Below, one piece after another: positions 9,209-62,787 of a stretch of 64,000 nt of DNA. Numbering within the stretch: position 1 is the stretch's first letter; each line of letters opens with the position of its first letter. The stretch covers positions 192,942 through 256,941 of the forward strand of contig JAQUQO010000001.1 in assembly GCA_028716045.1 (NCBI GenBank). Direction: 5' to 3'. A program made the translations under genes and the position numbers. The notes beneath the pieces are model-generated. The model worked only from the letters and a program-made list of their open reading frames with translations. It ran no database searches and was not told the origin of the DNA. This stretch comes from Patescibacteria group bacterium (GTDB taxonomy: Bacteria > Patescibacteriota > Patescibacteriia > JAQUQO01).

Positions 9209-9268
9209 AATTAGTTGGTTCAATCTTAAAGATTGAACCAACTACTGTAATTTAGCTGTAATTTTAAA

Positions 9269-9326
9269 CTTGACCCGTCGGTCGCGACCGACGGGTCTTG
9301 ACGAAATTGTCAAAATGTGATATATT
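9269..9326 (+). promoter_or_regulatory. Hairpin-promoter module, copy A: cTTGAC-[gacccgtcggtcgcgaccgacgggtc]-TTGACG-17-TATATT
   Basis: Perfect 26-bp palindrome 9272-9297; -35 at 9298-9303; -10 at 9321-9326. Confidence 0.6.
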
Positions 9327-9329
9327 GAA

Positions 9330-9935
9330 ATGTTTTGTACATTACAGCCTGGAGACGTGACAAGTCTGCGGAATTACAAAAAGCTTTCTGATGTTCGCAA
9401 GGTAGTTCGCGGTCAAGCAAAAATCGTGTCCAAGGAGCCTCGTTGGCGCGAAAAAGACGGCGTTATCTATTTCTCGGTGACCTCTGACGGCACAACCGGC
9501 GAAGAGTGGATTAGACGCTTGATAAAGAAAGGCTTCCGTGTGAGCAACTATGCCGAGGACGTGTTATGCTCGTCGGACTTTAAGCCCACAAAAGGCGTCA
9601 CGACCGAGATTGCGGTGCTCAGGGGAAGGCTGTTCAATGACAACGAGCGCTTCACGAAGAATATTTGCGCCGAGGCAGACCGCCGCCACCTGACCGAACC
9701 CAACGCCGAAATCGCCTGTCTCATCCGCGAGATGTTTACGGATGGGGAGCTGGAAGCCATGGGGTTTCGGTGGATTGTTGCCATGCACAAACCCATCAAA
9801 GATTCCTTTGGCATTCAGCGCCTTCTGAGTGTGCACCAGCACGATGATGGTTGTTGGTTGCGTACGTGCTCCGACAGTCGTGGCGACAAGTGGGGTCGTG
9901 ACGATGGTTTCGCGTTCGTTGTCCGCAAGTGGTAG
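9330..9935 (+). CDS. Hypothetical protein encoded in a GC-rich (~53% GC) island; probable horizontally acquired gene. Start uncertain.
   Basis: Sharp GC and codon-usage shift relative to the flanks; several spurious long overlapping ORFs on other frames. The ATG lies only 4 nt after the -10. Confidence 0.5.
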   Translation: MFCTLQPGDVTSLRNYKKLSDVRKVVRGQAKIVSKEPRWREKDGVIYFSVTSDGTTGEEWIRRLIKKGFRVSNYAEDVLCSSDFKPTKGVTTEIAVLRGRLFNDNERFTKNICAEADRRHLTEPNAEIACLIREMFTDGELEAMGFRWIVAMHKPIKDSFGIQRLLSVHQHDDGCWLRTCSDSRGDKWGRDDGFAFVVRKW

Positions 9936-18278: not shown

Positions 18279-18285
18279 AAAACGC

Positions 18286-18322
18286 TAACCCCGTTGCCGA
18301 ATAAATTCGGAACGGGGTTTTA
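18286..18322 (+). terminator. Rho-independent terminator, immediately followed by metK promoter TTGACT-17-TAAGAT (18323-18351)
   Basis: ccccgtt..gccgaataaattcgg..aacgggg then T-run. Confidence 0.6.
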
Positions 18323-18385
18323 TTGACTTTTTTTTGAAGCCGGGTTAAGATGAACAGAAGTTTTTATTTATAAGCGAATATCTTT

Positions 18386-19432
18386 ATGTATTTAAAAACA
18401 GCGGAAAGCGTGACGGAAGGCCATCCCGACAAGGTTTGCGACCAGATATCCGACGCCATTTTAGACGCCTGTTTGAGGCAGGACCCGAACTCGCGCGTGG
18501 CGGTGGAAACTTTTGGCGCCCACGGTCTTTTGGTAATCGGCGGGGAAGTGACGAGTGAGGCGAATTTTAATCCAGAACAGATTGCTCGGGAGGTTTATAA
18601 AAAAATCGGTTATAACGATGAGCTGGAAGTTATTTCTCATATTGTTCAGCAGTCGCCGGAGATTGGTCGGGGGGTTGATTTTGGCGGAGCGGGGGACCAG
18701 GGGATTATGTATGGTTATGCGACCATGGAGACGGGGGAGTATTTGCCAAAGTCGATAATTTTAGCTCATAATTTAGCTCGCCGTTTGGCTTATTTGCGAA
18801 GAAATGACCCGGAGTTTTTTTGGTTACGGCCGGACGGGAAAACTCAAGCCACTTTTGCCGACGGGAAAATTAAAACAGTTTTGGTTTCCACCCAGCATGA
18901 AGATAATATGAGTCAGGGTGATATTAGAGAAAAACTAATCAAGGGTTTGATAGAGCCGTTAGTTGGCGATTTGTCCGAGATTGAAATTTTGATAAACCCC
19001 AGCGGCAGTTTTGTCACCGGAGGTTTTATGGCTGATACCGGACTCACTGGCAGAAAAATAATGGTAGATACTTACGGTGGGCTTTTGCCTCACGGTGGCG
19101 GGGCTTTTTCCGGCAAAGACCCCTCCAAGGTTGACAGAAGCGCCGCTTATATGTGCCGCTTTGCCGCTAAAAATATAGTGGCCAGTGGGTTGGCCAAAAG
19201 TTGTCTTGTTTCAGTAGCCTATGCTATCGGCAAAGAAGACCCTTTGATGCTTGTGGCTAAAACTTCCGGCGGCCAAGATTTGACGGAAGTTCTTAAGAAA
19301 AATTTTGACTTTAGGCCAAGAGCAATTATTGAAAGGTTAGGGTTAAGAAGACCAATCTATCAACCCACAGCCGCTTATGGCCACTTTACCAATGCGGCCT
19401 ATCCCTGGGAAGAAATAGTGGGATTAAAATAA
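18386..19432 (+). CDS. metK: S-adenosylmethionine synthetase
   Basis: TAESVTEGHPDKVCDQISDAILDA N-terminus; 348 aa. Confidence 0.9.
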   Translation: MYLKTAESVTEGHPDKVCDQISDAILDACLRQDPNSRVAVETFGAHGLLVIGGEVTSEANFNPEQIAREVYKKIGYNDELEVISHIVQQSPEIGRGVDFGGAGDQGIMYGYATMETGEYLPKSIILAHNLARRLAYLRRNDPEFFWLRPDGKTQATFADGKIKTVLVSTQHEDNMSQGDIREKLIKGLIEPLVGDLSEIEILINPSGSFVTGGFMADTGLTGRKIMVDTYGGLLPHGGGAFSGKDPSKVDRSAAYMCRFAAKNIVASGLAKSCLVSVAYAIGKEDPLMLVAKTSGGQDLTEVLKKNFDFRPRAIIERLGLRRPIYQPTAAYGHFTNAAYPWEEIVGLK

Positions 19433-19441
19433 GATATTACT

Positions 19442-19480
19442 AAAAAAATCTCCCCCGTTAAACGGGGGAGATTTTTTATA
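19442..19480 (+). terminator. Rho-independent terminator
   Basis: atctcccccg-ttaaa-cgggggagat then a T-run. Confidence 0.7.
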
Positions 19481-19519
19481 TTTTACCCTTGAACCCTTGA
19501 TGCTGAAAGTGTTCAGGGT

Positions 19520-19577
19520 CTTGACCCGTCAGTCGCGACTGACGGGTCTTGACAAATCCTTCAAAACATGCTATGAT
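19520..19577 (+). promoter_or_regulatory. Hairpin-promoter module, copy B: cTTGAC-[gacccgtcagtcgcgactgacgggtc]-TTGACA-17-TATGAT
   Basis: Perfect palindrome 19523-19548; consensus -35 and -10 with 17-bp spacing. Confidence 0.6.
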
Positions 19578-19583
19578 ATAACG

Positions 19584-19980
19584 TTATAGTGCCTGGAAAA
19601 TTTAGTTGGCTAAGATTAGCGGAAAGCACTCTTTTGGGATGAAAATTTGGCTATAAATAGAGAAAATATAGCTAAGTTTCCATCCCGAGAGGGATGCCCC
19701 TTCGGGGGTCAAAGCTTATGTTTTGTCTTTTCTGCTATTCAGCCTTTTCCGGCTCTATAACGGATTTGCACATTACTTAAGCCCACAAAATTTTCCCCCC
19801 GAGAAGGAGGGTCAAAATTTAGAAAAGAACGTAGAAAGAGAGTAAAAAAACAATATAGAAATTTAAAGGAAACATTTTTTCATGAGAGTTTTCTCTCACA
19901 AAAAAATATTTTAAGCTTTTTAAGCTTAATAGTTTCCCCTCCAAATTTCTCTTACTCTCCTTTTCCTCTACGTTCTTTTT
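19584..19980 (+). ncRNA. Candidate structured non-coding RNA of unknown class, driven by module B
   Basis: About 400 nt with no ORF of 60 aa or more on either strand. Consensus promoter directly upstream. Local hairpins with GNRA (catccc-GAGA-gggatg) and UUCG (cccc-TTCG-gggg) loops. Long inverted repeat 19815-19845 / 19945-19978. Confidence 0.3.
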
Positions 19981-19984
19981 CTTT

Positions 19985-20695
19985 TTATTTTATTTCTAAA
20001 CCAGCCACCATGTCTTCAAAAACTTTTTTATATCCCCGGTCGTCGCTGTCCAAAGCGCCTTCCATTATTTTGTCGGCCATTTTAAAGAAGTAGTGCGCGA
20101 AGATTTGGCCGTTTTTATTTTTATAAAATGCTTCCAGCCCGTCGAAACCATTAATAGTAATTTTTTCGCTGGAAGAAAGTTTCCAGTCCTTATTTTCGGT
20201 TAACAAGCTTTTTTCTGCCGCCTCCTCTAAACTTTTCTCCGGGCTGATAGTAAATTTTATTGTCCCCTCGCCCCCGATTTTTAATTTTGGATAAAATTCA
20301 GCGATAGTCTCCGGGTCAAAAGTGGAACTCGCGTAAGTCCAATTTTTTGGATATTGGACGGTGAATTTATAAATGTCATTGGTGTAAATTTGCGGAGCAT
20401 TTGAAGCGGAGTTATTAGTTGTCGGCTCTGCCAGTGTTCCGAGTTTTTTATTCTGTGAGTTAATATCTTTTTGCTGTTCGGAGTAGCGGGAGTAGTATTG
20501 CTCCGCAGTTTCGGCAAAATAATTAGAAACGATGTGAAGTTGTCTGGTGAGGAGCGCCATCCAAAAAAGCAGACCGATATTAAGCGCGATTAGAATGATA
20601 ATTGCTCCGCTGGTCAGAGAGATTTTTTTATTATTTTTTCCGGAGTTTAATTTTATTTTTTTGAAGATTTTCTTTCCGCCGCCTAGTTTCAACAT
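19985..20695 (-). CDS. Hypothetical membrane-anchored protein (N-terminal TM)
   Basis: 236 aa ORF; no family recognised. Confidence 0.5.
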   Translation of the reverse strand: MLKLGGGKKIFKKIKLNSGKNNKKISLTSGAIIILIALNIGLLFWMALLTRQLHIVSNYFAETAEQYYSRYSEQQKDINSQNKKLGTLAEPTTNNSASNAPQIYTNDIYKFTVQYPKNWTYASSTFDPETIAEFYPKLKIGGEGTIKFTISPEKSLEEAAEKSLLTENKDWKLSSSEKITINGFDGLEAFYKNKNGQIFAHYFFKMADKIMEGALDSDDRGYKKVFEDMVAGLEIK

Positions 20696-23315: not shown

Positions 23316-23400
23316 CTTGACCCGTTGGTCGCGACCGATGGGTCTTGACCAGTCAGTCGCGACTGACTGGTCTTGACAGATTTTTAGGGTTTGTTATAAT
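23316..23400 (+). promoter_or_regulatory. Hairpin-promoter module, copy C. Tandem double hairpin (23319-23344 and 23347-23372) sharing TTGAC units, then TTGACA-16-TATAAT.
   Basis: First hairpin preserved by two G-T wobble pairs on the + strand. Second hairpin perfect. -10 at 23395-23400. Confidence 0.6.
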
Positions 23401-27839: not shown

Positions 27840-28250
27840 ATGTTTTTATTTATTAATACAGCCGAAGAAGAGAGATTACTGGCGGGGCTGATTTCCGCTA
27901 CTGGAACAATTTTGAAAGCCGCGGAAATTAAGGAAGGTGCGGAGAGAAGGGAATCGTTGTTAGGGTTGGTTGATAAATTATTATTGGCCAGCAAATTTTT
28001 TTCCGAAAAAATAAAAGGAATTATCGTAGTGACCGGTCCGGGAAGATTTAGCCGTTTGCGGTCAGCTGTTGTTTTAGCCAATACTTTATCTTTCGCTTTG
28101 GGTATCCCCGTGGCTGGAATGAATTTGGAGGAAGTGAAAAATCAAAGCGGTCTTATTAAAAAGGGCATAGCCAAGATTAAAAAAGGAGGGGATACGGTAG
28201 TCGCCCCTTTCTACGGCAAAGAGCCAAACATCACCCGCCGGAAATCTTGA
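27840..28250 (+). CDS. tsaB: Short TsaB (YeaZ)-like protein (t6A biosynthesis partner)
   Basis: IIVVTGPGRFSRLRSAVVLANTLSFALGIPVAG matches the TsaB N-domain GPGSFTGLRIGI..A.GLA region. Confidence 0.55.
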   Translation: MFLFINTAEEERLLAGLISATGTILKAAEIKEGAERRESLLGLVDKLLLASKFFSEKIKGIIVVTGPGRFSRLRSAVVLANTLSFALGIPVAGMNLEEVKNQSGLIKKGIAKIKKGGDTVVAPFYGKEPNITRRKS

Positions 28251-28303
28251 CACGTCGGTCGCGACTGACGTGTCTTGACAAATTCAGCTTTTTATGCTAT
28301 ATT
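28246..28303 (+). promoter_or_regulatory. Hairpin-promoter module, copy D: cTTGAC-[gacacgtcggtcgcgactgacgtgtc]-TTGACA-17-TATATT. The tsaB stop codon lies inside the first TTGAC.
   Basis: Palindrome 28249-28274 closed by one G-T wobble on the + strand; -10 at 28298-28303. Confidence 0.6.
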
Positions 28304-30782: not shown

Positions 30783-30793
30783 AACGCGTCTTT

Positions 30794-31003
30794 TTAAGGC
30801 GCGTTAGTTATTTTTTTGATGGTTGAGAAAATAATGGATATACCGCCGATGGTTAGACCCAAAAAGATAAATCCTATGGGTATAACTATTAGGGGGTCGG
30901 TATTGCCAGGTAGAATTTCCCCTAGGCCAGTCGTAATCATTACCGTTCCCATGCCAGTCGTAATCATTAAAGACCCTATTAGTATTTTAAGTAAATCCTT
31001 CAT
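30794..31003 (-). CDS. Possible small membrane protein (69 aa) containing an internal 17-bp direct repeat
   Basis: ORF ends next to a terminator hairpin; repeat gccagtcgtaatcatta x2 at 30923-30969. Coding status uncertain. Confidence 0.3.
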   Translation of the reverse strand: MKDLLKILIGSLMITTGMGTVMITTGLGEILPGNTDPLIVIPIGFIFLGLTIGGISIIFSTIKKITNAP

Positions 31004-31056
31004 AATCCCTCCTTTGTAAAGGTGCGATAATTAGATTGTAGGAAAATCTTAAATAT

Positions 31057-32067
31057 ATGTCAATTAGTCCAAAAATATTAATAAGTTTAGTAACCTGGAA
31101 TAGTAAAAAATTTCTACCCTTTTGTTTACCCGCTATTTATAGCCAGACGTATAATAATTTTCAGTTAGTTGTTTTAGACAACGATTCTTCTGACGGGACA
31201 GCGGATTTTGTTTTGAAAAATTATCCAGAGGCGGAATTAATCAGGAACGGTAGAAACGAAGGATATGTGGCGCATAATAGAAATATAGAATATGGGCTAA
31301 GAAATATGGGAGAAGGATTTGAATATGTTTTAGTGATGAATCCTGATATTGTGATGGAGCTAGATTGTTTGGGTAAATTGGTGGAGGCGATGGAGGGAGG
31401 AGAGAAGTTGGGTAGTGTTGGCCCGAAGTTGAAGCGCTTTGAATTTGGCGAGGACTTGAAAAATATAGTTAAAACCGATATAATTGATTCTACTGGTTTA
31501 AAAATGTTCCGTTCTCGCCGAACCGTTGACCGTGGGGCCGGAGAAATTGATAATAGCCAATTTGATGGTCAAAAAGAGGTTTTTGGAATTTCCGGAGCCT
31601 TAGCGCTTTACCGTCTAAACGCCCTACAAGGGGTTAGGTTGGCTGAAGGAGAGTATTTTGATAAAGATTATTTTATGTATAAAGAAGATGTTGATTTGGC
31701 TTGGCGGTTGAAGAATAGGGGTTGGGGGGCGGAGTTGGTACCAAAAGCAGTTGCTTATCACTATCGCGGTGCCGCGGGTGGTGAAAAAGTTGGCGCAATT
31801 AATATTATTAAAAATAGAAAAGAAAAGTCAAAATTAGTTAATTATTATTCTTACAAAAATCACCTTTTGACTTTAGTAAAAAATGAGCGGTGGGGCGACT
31901 TTTTGAAAAATTTTCCTTTTATATTTTGGTACGAATTAAAAAAGTTTTTATATATTTTATTTTTTGAATGGCCGACTCTCAAAGCGATTCCCGAATTCTT
32001 TAGGCAATTGCCAAACTCTTTAGAAAAGAGAAGATTAATATTTTCGAAATATGCTAAAAATAAGTAA
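31057..32067 (+). CDS. Family-2 glycosyltransferase
   Basis: LVVLDNDSSDGTADFV ... typical GT-A fold motifs. Confidence 0.8.
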   Translation: MSISPKILISLVTWNSKKFLPFCLPAIYSQTYNNFQLVVLDNDSSDGTADFVLKNYPEAELIRNGRNEGYVAHNRNIEYGLRNMGEGFEYVLVMNPDIVMELDCLGKLVEAMEGGEKLGSVGPKLKRFEFGEDLKNIVKTDIIDSTGLKMFRSRRTVDRGAGEIDNSQFDGQKEVFGISGALALYRLNALQGVRLAEGEYFDKDYFMYKEDVDLAWRLKNRGWGAELVPKAVAYHYRGAAGGEKVGAINIIKNRKEKSKLVNYYSYKNHLLTLVKNERWGDFLKNFPFIFWYELKKFLYILFFEWPTLKAIPEFFRQLPNSLEKRRLIFSKYAKNK

Positions 32068-37703: not shown

Positions 37704-38381
37704 ATGGCAGGAGGGGATAAAAAGTTTAATCGCCAGTCGATTCGTTTAAAAAATTATGATTATAGTGAATCGGGATATTATTTCGTAACGATTTGCGTAC
37801 AAGGTAGTAAATGTTTATTTGGCGAGGTGGTTAATGGTGAGGTGATATTAAATAGTATTGGCGAAATGATTAAAAAATGGTGGCTGGAATTAGAAAATAA
37901 ATTTTTCCGCGTTGAATTAGATAAATTTATTGTAATGCCGAACCATTTTCATGGAATAATAAATATAACCATAGGGATTGTAGGGGCAGACCTGCGTGTC
38001 TGCTCTAATCTTAAAAAGGGCGAACACGTAGGTTCGCCCCTACACAATCGCGAACACGTAGGTTCGCCCCTACACAATCGCGAACACGTAGGTTCGCCCC
38101 TACACAATCGCGAACACGTAGGTTCGCCCCTACATGATATTGTAAAATGGTTTAAAACAATGACGACGAATGAATATATTAAAAATGTTAAACAAGGCGG
38201 TTGGCCGCCATTCGATCGGAGATTATGGCAGCGCAATTATTGGGAGCACGTAATCCGTACCGAAAAATCATTAAATAATATTCGTGAATATATACTGAGC
38301 AATCCCGAAAATTGGAGTGGCGAAGCGGAGGATTTTAATGTATTTGTGGGTAAATTTATTGTTAAATCCGCCGCTTTATGA
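37704..38381 (+). CDS. REP-associated tyrosine transposase (RAYT / IS200-like TnpA_REP) with an in-frame repeat insertion
   Basis: YYFVTICVQG ... MPNHFHGII (HuH) ... RNYWEHV (catalytic Tyr). Decapeptide HVGSPLHNRE repeated about 4 times. Confidence 0.8.
   Translation: MAGGDKKFNRQSIRLKNYDYSESGYYFVTICVQGSKCLFGEVVNGEVILNSIGEMIKKWWLELENKFFRVELDKFIVMPNHFHGIINITIGIVGADLRVCSNLKKGEHVGSPLHNREHVGSPLHNREHVGSPLHNREHVGSPLHDIVKWFKTMTTNEYIKNVKQGGWPPFDRRLWQRNYWEHVIRTEKSLNNIREYILSNPENWSGEAEDFNVFVGKFIVKSAAL
38021..38140 (+). repeat. 3.8 tandem copies of a 30-bp unit (cgaacacgtaggttcgcccctacacaatcg), each containing hairpin gcgaac-acGTAG-gttcgc, embedded in-frame in the RAYT gene
   Basis: Read directly; unit length 30 = 10 codons. 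Confidence 0.9.
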
Positions 38382-38394
38382 TAGAATTCTCTAT

Positions 38395-39405
38395 ATGATA
38401 CAGAAGGGGATACAATGGAACTGGAGGGTGATTGGCAATCGTAATATTGCCGATTTTTTACAAAATAACATTGCCAAAAACAATTTAGCTCACGCCTACC
38501 TTTTTGCCGGTCCGGAAAAAGTTGGCCGCAAGATTCTGGCCTATGAATTTATCTCTTCGTTATTTTGCGAGGATAAAAACGTGAAACCCTGTGGCAAGTG
38601 CCGGCAATGTCAGCAAATCGCCAAGGGAATCCATCCGGACGTTTATCATCTTTCTAAATTGGAAGAAAAAAAAGACATCATCATTGAGCAGGTGAGAGAG
38701 TTACAAAATAAATTAAGTTTAGGCTCCTTTTCTAACGGTTATAAAGTGGCGGTAATTGATGGCGCGGACTTATTGAATGAATCTTCGGCCAACAGTTTTT
38801 TAAAGACGCTGGAAGAGCCGACAGCCAAGACGATTATTATTTTGATAGCCGAGAAAGTTGATTTTTTGCCGGCAACAATTCTGTCGCGTTGTCAGATTTT
38901 AAAATTTTTACCAGTTAAAGAAAAAGAAATTTTTGATTATCTTTTATCCTTGGGCGCTCAACGCGCGGAGGCGGAAAATTTGGCGCACTTGTCCTTTGGC
39001 CGGCCGGGCCTAGCTCTTGATTTATTCCGCCAACGGGATTTGCTGGAAGAACATAATAAGAGAGTGAATGACTTTTTTCTCTTGTCTCAAGGCGAAATTT
39101 ATGAAAGGTTTGAAATCATAAATAATTTGGCCAATAGCAAGATAGAGAGAAATGTTTTGGTTAAAAATTTGGACAGTTCGCTCGGGATTTGGGCGTCGCT
39201 TTTAAGGGACATGGCCTATATCAAGAATGATTCTCTCGATTTTATCGCCAATTTGAATGTCAAGGAAAAATTACAAAAACTAGCGCAAAGATACTCTTTG
39301 GAGAAAATTGTGGAACTAATGGAAGAGCTTAACAAAACCAGGGATTATTTGGAAAGGAACGTGAATATCCGTTTGGCCCTGGAAAACTTTGTTTTAAATC
39401 TATAA
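38395..39405 (+). CDS. holB: DNA polymerase III delta-prime subunit
   Basis: AHAYLFAGPEKVGRK ... CGKCRQCQQIAKGIHPDV zinc module. Start chosen at 38395 to avoid overlap with the RAYT gene. Confidence 0.8.
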   Translation: MIQKGIQWNWRVIGNRNIADFLQNNIAKNNLAHAYLFAGPEKVGRKILAYEFISSLFCEDKNVKPCGKCRQCQQIAKGIHPDVYHLSKLEEKKDIIIEQVRELQNKLSLGSFSNGYKVAVIDGADLLNESSANSFLKTLEEPTAKTIIILIAEKVDFLPATILSRCQILKFLPVKEKEIFDYLLSLGAQRAEAENLAHLSFGRPGLALDLFRQRDLLEEHNKRVNDFFLLSQGEIYERFEIINNLANSKIERNVLVKNLDSSLGIWASLLRDMAYIKNDSLDFIANLNVKEKLQKLAQRYSLEKIVELMEELNKTRDYLERNVNIRLALENFVLNL

Positions 39406-46026: not shown

Positions 46027-46097
46027 CTCGGGGGGTTCGTATAATGGTAGTACAGGGGTCTCACCCGTCAGTCGCGACTGACGGGTGTCTCCAAAAC
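46027..46097 (+). pseudogene. Partial 5' copy of tRNA-Trp (acceptor through anticodon loop) with a 25-bp GTCGCGAC-core hairpin (46063-46087) inserted in the anticodon loop
   Basis: ctcggggggttcgtataatggtagtacaggggtctc + acccgtcagtcgcgactgacgggtg + tctccaaaac; the flanking tc(tc) is duplicated. Confidence 0.6.
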
Positions 46098-46101
46098 TTT
46101 T

Positions 46102-46353
46102 ATGTATTATATTTATATTCTACATATAGAAGGGATTAAGGGTAAAAATTTTTATATTGGTTATACTGCGGATTTGAAAAATAGACTTAAGGAACATTTA
46201 CTAGGGAGAGTTAGAACAACCAGAGGTAGAAACCCAAAATTAATTTATTTTGAAGCTTATGGTGGTAAATATCTAGCTTTAAAAAGAGAAAAAGGTTTAA
46301 AAAATAGTGGTTCCGTTTATAATGCCTTGTTGAGACGTTTAAGTTTAAAATAA
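46102..46353 (+). CDS. Small GIY-YIG nuclease-superfamily protein (YhbQ/UPF0213-like)
   Basis: YYIYILH..GIKGKNFYIGYTADLKNRLKEH..G.....RGR.P.L.Y.E......AL..E..LK matches the YhbQ-type GIY-YIG pattern. Confidence 0.7.
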   Translation: MYYIYILHIEGIKGKNFYIGYTADLKNRLKEHLLGRVRTTRGRNPKLIYFEAYGGKYLALKREKGLKNSGSVYNALLRRLSLK

Positions 46354-46359
46354 AAACTC

Positions 46360-46433
46360 GGGGGGTTCGTATAATGGTAGTACAGGGGTCTCCAAAACCT
46401 CTAGCGTGGGTTCGATTCCTACACCCCCTGCCA
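46360..46433 (+). tRNA. tRNA-Trp (anticodon CCA), 3' CCA encoded
   Basis: Acceptor ggggggt/accccct (G1-U72), anticodon loop ctCCAaa, T-loop ttcgatt. Confidence 0.75.
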
Positions 46434-50415: not shown

Positions 50416-50662
50416 TAAAAAAGAAAGCGCCATTTATTGGCGCTATTTAGATACGTTTACTTGGTTTTATGTTTTTGATATTTTTTTATTTGTCATTCTG
50501 AGCGTAATCCCGATTATTCGGGATGAAGCGAAGAATCTATATGCTTATTTTTAGAGATCCTTCGTCGCTCCGCTCCTCAGGATGACAAAGTGGGTTTTTA
50601 AAAAAAGAAAGCGCCGTTTTACTGGCGCTTTTTAGATTGGGTTACTTGGCTTTATTTTTTTT
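50411..50662. repeat. Two ~65-bp direct repeats (50411-50477; 50592-50662, about 85% identical, each holding hairpin gaaagcgcc...ggcgct) flanking a ~115-bp inverted-repeat-bounded structured insert (TIR ttgtcatYctgag)
   Basis: Read directly. Confidence 0.6.
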
Positions 50663-50851
50663 GACTTTGGGCGGTAAAACTTTGGGGCAACCCATTTCTT
50701 CCTGGGTCCATAATTTGTCCCAGGTATTCATAATTGCGTCCCCGTCGGCTTGGTCGGCTTTCGCCATTTCTTCATAAAGCTCCTCGCCTTCTTTTTTGAG
50801 CTCTTTGAGCTCTTTAGAAGTAAACCTTTTCTTTTTTAATTTCTCTGTCAT
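50642..50851 (-). CDS. Hypothetical small Lys/Glu-rich protein (69 aa)
   Basis: Good RBS (aaaggagaat); promoter module F upstream. Confidence 0.45.
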   Translation of the reverse strand: MTEKLKKKRFTSKELKELKKEGEELYEEMAKADQADGDAIMNTWDKLWTQEEMGCPKVLPPKVKKNKAK

Positions 50852-50927
50852 GGTATTCTCCTTTGTTAAAAATCATCTTTTTAAACCATGGAGAGAAGTA
50901 TAAAACCGCAAAAACCAAGTATATTTC

Positions 50928-50988
50928 ACAATATCACAAACTTAGAAATTTGTCAAGGCCAGTCAGTCGCGACTAACGGGTCAAGCCC
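50928..50988 (-). promoter_or_regulatory. Hairpin-promoter module, copy F (minus strand; degenerate hairpin, TTGACA-17-TATTGT)
   Basis: Reverse complement reads cttgacccgttagtcgcgactgactggccttgacaa...; weaker -10. Confidence 0.4.
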
Positions 50989-62485: not shown

Positions 62486-62787
62486 TGTTCTAAGTATTTT
62501 CAATTTCCACACTTGATTGGAAATAATTAAAGGGACGGACGGTGGATTTCACTATTCGTCCTTTTGGTTGGTTAGCGGCGATTGGGCCCTGCAGAAGTAG
62601 AGGAACGCTCAAGAGAGGGAAAAGACCCGGAATTTCTGGCTTTTGAGAGAAAGACACGTTGGAATCTTCTTTCCGTCTTAAAGAAGAAAAAGTGAGGGCT
62701 ATGTTTATTCAAAATCCACCGCTATTAAGCAGTGGATTTTTTATTTTTATTAATTCTCCCCTTAAGATAAGGGGAGGGGAGGAGGGG

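Follow-up and report, generated by a model that had tools for sequence, protein, structure and literature searches.

A candidate lineage-specific structured small RNA gene between metK and a convergent orphan gene in a Patescibacteria genome

In a MAG of Patescibacteria, we identified a candidate gene for a small, structured and lineage-specific noncoding RNA (ncRNA) on the plus strand of the interval that follows metK (19582-19762; positions are those of the window, i.e., the whole 64-kb stretch of DNA that was analysed). The locus is known from this one genome, and we put the probability of this reading at about one half. A sequence-only reading of the same DNA had proposed a single promoter-driven, ORF-free and structured transcript of about 400 nt. 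By the tools used here, these three properties hold for the plus-strand segment named above, which matches no Rfam family and is about 180 nt long rather than 400, and the 3' third of the proposed transcript reads better as an element of the other strand. Four alternative readings were weighed as well, in descending order of weight a cis-antisense regulator, a fold-back relic, a type I toxin-antitoxin system or small protein, and a 6S RNA.

Mechanistically, we posit that a consensus sigma-70 promoter would start a plus-strand RNA at about 19583 as a self-contained unit, and that its first 181 nt would lock into a very stable four-way junction in which the 5' part pairs with the 3' end. An end-to-end closing helix combined with long, near-perfect helices would suit an RNA that works as a stable folded particle, for instance by binding protein or serving as a scaffold; long perfect helices can also come from palindromes at the DNA level. 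Patescibacteria are ultra-small and host-dependent and have lost many regulators, and an abundant RNA particle of one lineage would therefore offer a lead to lineage-specific regulation. If the reading is right, this would be such a particle, highly expressed and very stable. A bolder version, which we regard as a long shot, would make the 181-nt segment (domain 1) the first-seen member of an RNA class of the Patescibacteria lineage, namely a 180-nt four-way-junction particle with a translation-machinery-type promoter and a housekeeping role (e.g., in place of a 6S-type polymerase regulator, which is not known to have been reported for this phylum), or would join it with the minus-strand hairpin described below in a new convergent RNA-RNA control module.

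Genomic setting

The gene-free gap spans 552 nt (19433-19984) between metK and a convergent 236-aa ORF (Table 1). On the left it is insulated by the metK terminator, in which a terminator scan counted 16 pairs over 35 nt and which forms the left boundary of the unit, and bidirectional terminators flank the unit on both its left and its right side. On the right, the 236-aa ORF is an orphan, with no homolog but itself among 5.8 billion clusters, and the block as a whole may have been inserted recently, given that this neighbour is an orphan too. Searches of the neighbouring genes for a defence or partner-protein context (PADLOC, NCBIfam and Pfam) returned nothing linked to the element; the domains that they found were a Cas4-like PD-(D/E)XK nuclease, a SpoT-like HD domain and a UMP kinase.

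Table 1 Features of the metK downstream region, with positions in the window.
Feature	Position	Strand	Description
metK	18386-19432	+	left neighbour of the gap
metK intrinsic terminator	19443-19477	bidirectional	perfect 17-bp palindromic stem, 100% complementary; A/T runs on both sides
Palindromic promoter module	19516-19553	+	GGGTCTTGAC-CCGTCAGTCGCGACTGACGG-GTCTTGAC; downstream TTGAC is the -35 box
Sigma-70-type promoter	19549-19577	+	TTGACA / 17 nt / TGc-TATGAT; 11/12, TG extension present
Domain 1	19582-19762	+	181 nt, 71 bp, predicted four-way junction
Domain 1, P1	19582-19625 / 19729-19762	+	closing helix, about 32 bp
Domain 1, P2	19626-19697	+	29 bp, 11-nt loop AAUAGAGAAAA
Domain 1, P3	19698-19707	+	C(UUCG)G hairpin
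Domain 1, P4	19710-19725	+	hairpin on 3' side
Candidate 28-aa peptide	19695-19781	+	ORF
Candidate 40-aa peptide	19723-19845	+	ORF
Domain 2	19788-19820		short hairpin AAAUUUU-CCCCCC-GAGAA-GGAGGG-UC-AAAAUUU
Domain 3	19823-19979	-	157-nt hairpin, three-way apex, 64 bp; adjacent to ORF stop
Candidate 41-aa peptide	19944-19819	-	ends ...MFPLNFYIVFLLSFYVLF; inside domain 3
236-aa ORF	19985-20695	-	right neighbour, convergent; membrane-anchored; weak PsbP_2 match (1e-6)

A riboswitch or other cis-regulatory leader was considered and rejected. The next gene is convergent and no plus-strand ORF follows, so the RNA would have no downstream gene to act on as a leader or riboswitch, and no Rfam riboswitch model matched. 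On the other side of metK, the leader of metK itself is only 107 nt long here (18279-18385) and has no Rfam match, and a SAM-I riboswitch lies directly upstream of metK in nine of 16 related Patescibacteria loci (L003, L004, L007, L008, L009, L013, L014, L015 and L164).

Promoter and palindromic module

The promoter fits the sigma-70 consensus at 11 of 12 positions, which agrees with the TTGACA-17-TATGAT motif that the sequence-only reading had recognised and adds a TGn extension to it; transcription is predicted to start at about G19583 to A19586. Sites scoring at least 11/12 number seven in the 64 kb, against a mean of 2.4 in block shuffles. The -35 box is itself the downstream arm of a palindromic module with the general form GTCTTGAC-CCGTCAGTCGCGACTGACGG-GTCTTGAC, copies of which precede the leader of L10 (rplJ; 23316-23378, two in tandem), the ORFs that start at 9330 and 28330, and a 69-aa ORF on the minus strand (50851-50642). 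Since the module recurs before the L10 leader and real ORFs, the promoter ahead of domain 1 belongs to a family that drives genes.

Across the window, a 22-bp palindrome, CCCGTCAGTCGCGACTGACGGG, with flanking direct GTCTTGAC repeats is present at five promoter sites (9268-9302, 19516-19553, 23316-23378, 28245-28283 and, on the minus strand, 50948-50985). A sixth copy (46063-46086) is without TTGAC, lies within a duplicated fragment of tRNA-Trp and has GTCTC on its flanks; the palindrome may bind a regulator, or it may be a tiny palindromic insertion with duplication of the target. The tRNA-Trp gene (46360-46433) has its 5' half duplicated at about 46028-46066, and an 83-aa GIY-YIG nuclease ORF (46102-46353; Pfam 3e-11) sits between the copies, so that 46028-46433 looks like a homing-endonuclease-type insertion into the tRNA-Trp gene. 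We also considered whether another promoter copy precedes a second ORF-free transcript and rejected this, as the minus-strand promoter sites at 50959 and 31063 drive small ORFs with Shine-Dalgarno (SD) sequences. Both products look unannotated: a consensus promoter leads to a membrane protein of about 68 aa with the SD sequence AAAGGAGGG at 30783-31063 (minus), and another to a 69-aa lysine-rich protein at 50642-50959 (minus).

A stable four-way junction on the plus strand

Energetically, the plus strand of domain 1 reaches -82.4 kcal/mol over 19582-19762 and -84 kcal/mol over 19580-19765, the latter with a z-score of -9.4 relative to dinucleotide shuffles, and most pair probabilities exceed 0.9. 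The minus strand reaches only -61.1 kcal/mol (z -6.95), and the plus-strand fold contains seven G·U pairs against one A·C mismatch, which is a weak strand statistic (p = 0.07). When the minimum free energies of 2840 windows of 181 nt across the 64 kb were regressed on GC content, 19582-19762 on the plus strand was the top outlier, with a residual z of -5.4. The closing helix starts where transcription is predicted to start, and the 5' and 3' ends pair with each other.

Several structural details that had been picked out from the sequence alone can be placed in this fold. The UUCG tetraloop appears in it as the C(UUCG)G hairpin of P3, with a pair probability of about 0.75, and the repeated gggtcaaa motif is indeed there, with copies at 19706 and 19809. 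The GAGA that had been taken for a second tetraloop is instead part of the 3' strand of the 29-bp P2 helix, where pair probabilities approach 1; a fold made to contain the CAUCCC-GAGA-GGGAUG hairpin is less stable by about 10 kcal/mol.

Among known RNAs, domain 1 is like 6S RNA (ssrS, RF00013) in being noncoding, about 180 nt long and under its own promoter, with paired ends and a long apical stem, and it has the dimensions of the 6S rod (about 150-200 nt with a closing and an apical stem). A highly divergent 6S RNA, which would mimic open promoter DNA and sequester RNA polymerase, is nevertheless a very improbable identity for it. The 181-nt length, the paired ends with their long closing stem, the long apical stem and the strong housekeeping-type promoter all suit that identity, as does the ability of the 3' strand of lower P2 to refold into the CAUCCC-GAGA-GGGAUG hairpin, which recalls the rearrangement that 6S RNA undergoes on pRNA synthesis; in addition, our literature search for 6S RNA in Patescibacteria (CPR) found no paper on it. 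The central bubble, however, is missing. Domain 1 has in its place a four-way junction that is paired throughout and carries two small hairpins on its 3' side, the 5' side runs directly from P1 into P2 with pair probabilities near 1, and freeing the 5' strand in an alternative fold costs about 10 kcal/mol. Rfam likewise gave no 6S match at the gathering score or, in searches with 651 nt and with 193 nt, at E<=10.

Also comparable are the orphan structured sRNAs of reduced genomes, such as the Mycoplasma MCS RNAs in Rfam, which share with our candidate a species-restricted distribution, an intergenic position and their own promoter and terminator. Domain 1 differs from these in being unusually large and stable (71 bp, z -9.4) and in being known here from sequence alone.

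Two further stretches of the window drew attention for their folds. The segment 37936-38161 ranks with the most stable 181-nt windows for either strand, though it is coding (the junction of the ORFs 37704-38381 and 38317-39405). On the plus strand, 62490-62745 is another ORF-free stretch, which follows a small SD-bearing ORF and closes with a clean terminator (about 62711-62740); it is only mildly unusual in its fold (z -2.4) and has no Rfam match.

A minus-strand hairpin and the extent of the transcript

Downstream of domain 1, domain 2 resembles a partial duplicate of 19674-19718 and includes an SD-like GAAGGAGGG with no ORF behind it. Read on the minus strand, it resembles a terminator (site 19811-19795), with -11.5 there versus -9.1 on the plus strand.

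Domain 3 begins five bases past the stop of the 236-aa ORF, and in the 181-nt window scan only domain 1 is a stronger outlier. Its minus strand reaches -62.9 kcal/mol (z -9.95) with nine G·U pairs, and its plus strand -47.6 kcal/mol with none, an asymmetry with a binomial p of 0.004. The basal stem comprises 13 perfect bp (19823-19835 / 19967-19979) and continues into further arms (19835-19850 / 19947-19962), which together account for the 30-bp inverted repeat that had been noted near the end of the proposed transcript. An A tract and a U tract flank this stem in both orientations: on the plus strand, positions 19980-19998 are T-rich, and the minus strand has UUUU-CUAAAUUUU. The segment 19823-19979 thus presents what is looked for in an intrinsic terminator, i.e., a stable stem and then a U tract at the 3' end of a gene.

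That these 157 nt fold far better on the minus strand is what tells against a single structured transcript of about 400 nt, and we read domain 3 as probably lying outside the functional fold of the plus-strand RNA. Because of its minus-strand G·U bias, its adjacency to the ORF stop and the A/U tracts in both directions, domain 3 seems to fit best as a 3'-UTR hairpin of the 236-aa gene that may double as a shared bidirectional terminator, also ending the plus-strand transcript. Like bidirectional terminators between convergent genes, it lies between convergent units and has A/U tracts around its basal stem both ways; unlike ordinary ones, it is 157 nt long with 64 bp and a three-way apex, several times the size of the 35-nt metK terminator, and is optimised for one strand. 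For genome scanning, the lesson is that G·U versus A·C asymmetry resolved what had seemed a single 400-nt "RNA" into one plus-strand and one minus-strand element.

The plus-strand transcript lacks a good terminator of its own and would most likely read on to this 157-nt hairpin. With its 13-bp basal stem and the T-rich tract that follows, the hairpin would then serve both directions. If the plus-strand RNA reads into domain 3, the 3' ends of the convergent transcripts would therefore share about 160 nt. Such an overlap invites an unlikely but, of the alternatives, the least unlikely reading, in which the plus-strand RNA is there mainly to read into the 3' end of the convergent 236-aa gene and, as its cis-antisense regulator, forms a duplex of about 160 nt with that mRNA across 19823-19979 and acts by RNase III cleavage or transcriptional interference, with domain 1 only stabilising the 5' end as a structure. 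The convergent layout with a strong plus-strand promoter is what one would look for in such a regulator, no convincing plus-strand terminator precedes domain 3 (there is only the weak domain 2 hairpin), and the overlap is far longer than that of an ordinary shared terminator. But the extent of read-through on which the duplex depends is itself inferred, the overlapping region is shaped for the minus rather than the plus strand, and the most stable strand-specific fold of the window, 181 nt that lie outside the overlap, would be left without explanation.

Coding potential and known RNA families

The longest ORF with a start codon in the region encodes 41 aa, and the longest stop-to-stop frame, of 74 aa, is without a start codon, so the claim that neither strand holds an ORF of 60 aa or more stands. 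No gene was predicted in the gap by the gene caller. Six-frame fragments gave nothing significant against Pfam, where the best match, DUF7815 (E = 0.065, 13.6 bits), fell far below the curated cutoff, and nothing by tblastn against 164 related loci; a frameshifted pseudogene, which had been named as one way in which the RNA reading could fail, therefore left no signal in these six-frame searches.

The short ORFs that are present bear on a rather improbable reading, namely a convergent pair like a type I toxin-antitoxin system, or a hidden gene for a small protein, in which either the plus-strand RNA or the minus-strand hairpin RNA would encode a short hydrophobic peptide from a start site concealed by structure, with the transcript of the other strand as antisense antidote. 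Among 3'-overlapping type I systems are bsrG/SR4, txpA/RatA and par of pAD1 (RNA I/RNA II), and the locus would be like them in having two predicted convergent structured transcripts that share a terminator region, unequal promoters (strong on one side and a weak promoter-like site on the other) and candidate short hydrophobic ORFs whose starts are buried in helices. Both RNAs would be extremely structured; pairing within the hairpin takes in the UUG start of the 41-aa ORF and an SD-like AAGGAGAG, and a terminator-like hairpin lies just past the stop codon of that ORF. Where the locus departs from such systems is in having no credible ribosome-binding site or peptide family, and in a minus-strand hairpin that lies directly 3' of a normal 236-aa gene. 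The 41-aa ORF has an SD-to-start spacing of 12 nt and starts with UUG, and the two plus-strand candidates are without a usable ribosome-binding site. The minus-strand promoter-like site (AAGACA-18-TAAAAT, 20016-19987, 9/12) is at chance level, 1.7 such sites being expected. No homolog of the 41-aa peptide was found among 1.84 billion representatives; its single match (E = 3e-4) was to a 601-aa protein that aligned in nine separate stretches. Type I toxins often have no detectable homologs, and hydrophobic peptides are the expected translation of any U-rich arm. The absence of both a significant Pfam match in any frame and a predicted gene also weighs against a coding role.

With regard to known RNA families, the earlier failure to recognise RNase P RNA, tmRNA, SRP RNA or 6S RNA in the region was confirmed by Rfam and ARAGORN. 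An Infernal scan over the whole window, the check that had been suggested, found no family in the region at the gathering score; at E<=10, three sub-ranges returned only junk, mainly generic-hairpin matches to models of miRNA precursors. ARAGORN found no tmRNA, and inspection of the sequence for the hallmarks of SRP RNA, RNase P RNA and tmRNA found no helix-8 GNAR/AGCA motif, no P4 core and no tRNA-like end.

Distribution and origin

The small RNA candidate had no detectable relative in any set of loci that we searched. Among 160 metK-linked loci from GTDB genomes and JGI metagenomes (with at most 69% identity), the spacer showed no similarity by nhmmer or blastn, and about 167 related loci, from Patescibacteria and other metK or HD_4 contexts, gave no nhmmer, blastn or covariance-model match. 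In the MetK relatives that came closest in the protein database (80, 75 and 72% identity), metK is followed by a short spacer of unrelated sequence. A single-sequence covariance model of domain 1 matched only itself in 68 loci plus the window, and nothing meaningful came from a pattern scan of viral contigs or from distant blastn searches of phages and plasmids. In the papers searched with a general ncRNA query, we found no description of ncRNAs in Patescibacteria (CPR). Target prediction with RNAduplex against all start regions yielded only long gapped duplexes and was uninformative.

An orphan of this kind might also be a relic at the DNA level, that is, a palindromic insertion of the fold-back or MITE-like kind, or selfish DNA in decay, whose place behind a promoter is accidental and which does nothing as RNA. 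We consider this unlikely, and slightly more so than cis-antisense control. Terminal inverted repeats of 18 nt, CGTTATAGTGCCTGGAAA and TTTTCCGGCTCTATAACG, enclose the 181-bp unit (19582-19599 / 19745-19762; 83% complementary), as they would in a MITE; the window also contains other small palindromic modules and the GIY-YIG insertion, and both the element and its right-hand neighbour are orphans that are absent from relatives. Against these observations, the element is present in a single copy within the 64 kb and all fetched loci, its flanks show no target-site duplication, and its fold is a nested four-way junction rather than a simple fold-back. The decay of a neutral palindrome, moreover, predicts no bias of G·U over A·C, whereas here each domain shows one, on opposite strands.

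On the HD_4 side of the comparison, one of three relatives carries unrelated sequence, and in the other two the contig breaks about 100 nt upstream of the HD_4 gene. The contig ends concerned, from the two closest HD_4 relatives (Logan), are L165 1-80 and L166 1-117, and these assembly breaks may fall at a position that matches the orphan block of this genome.
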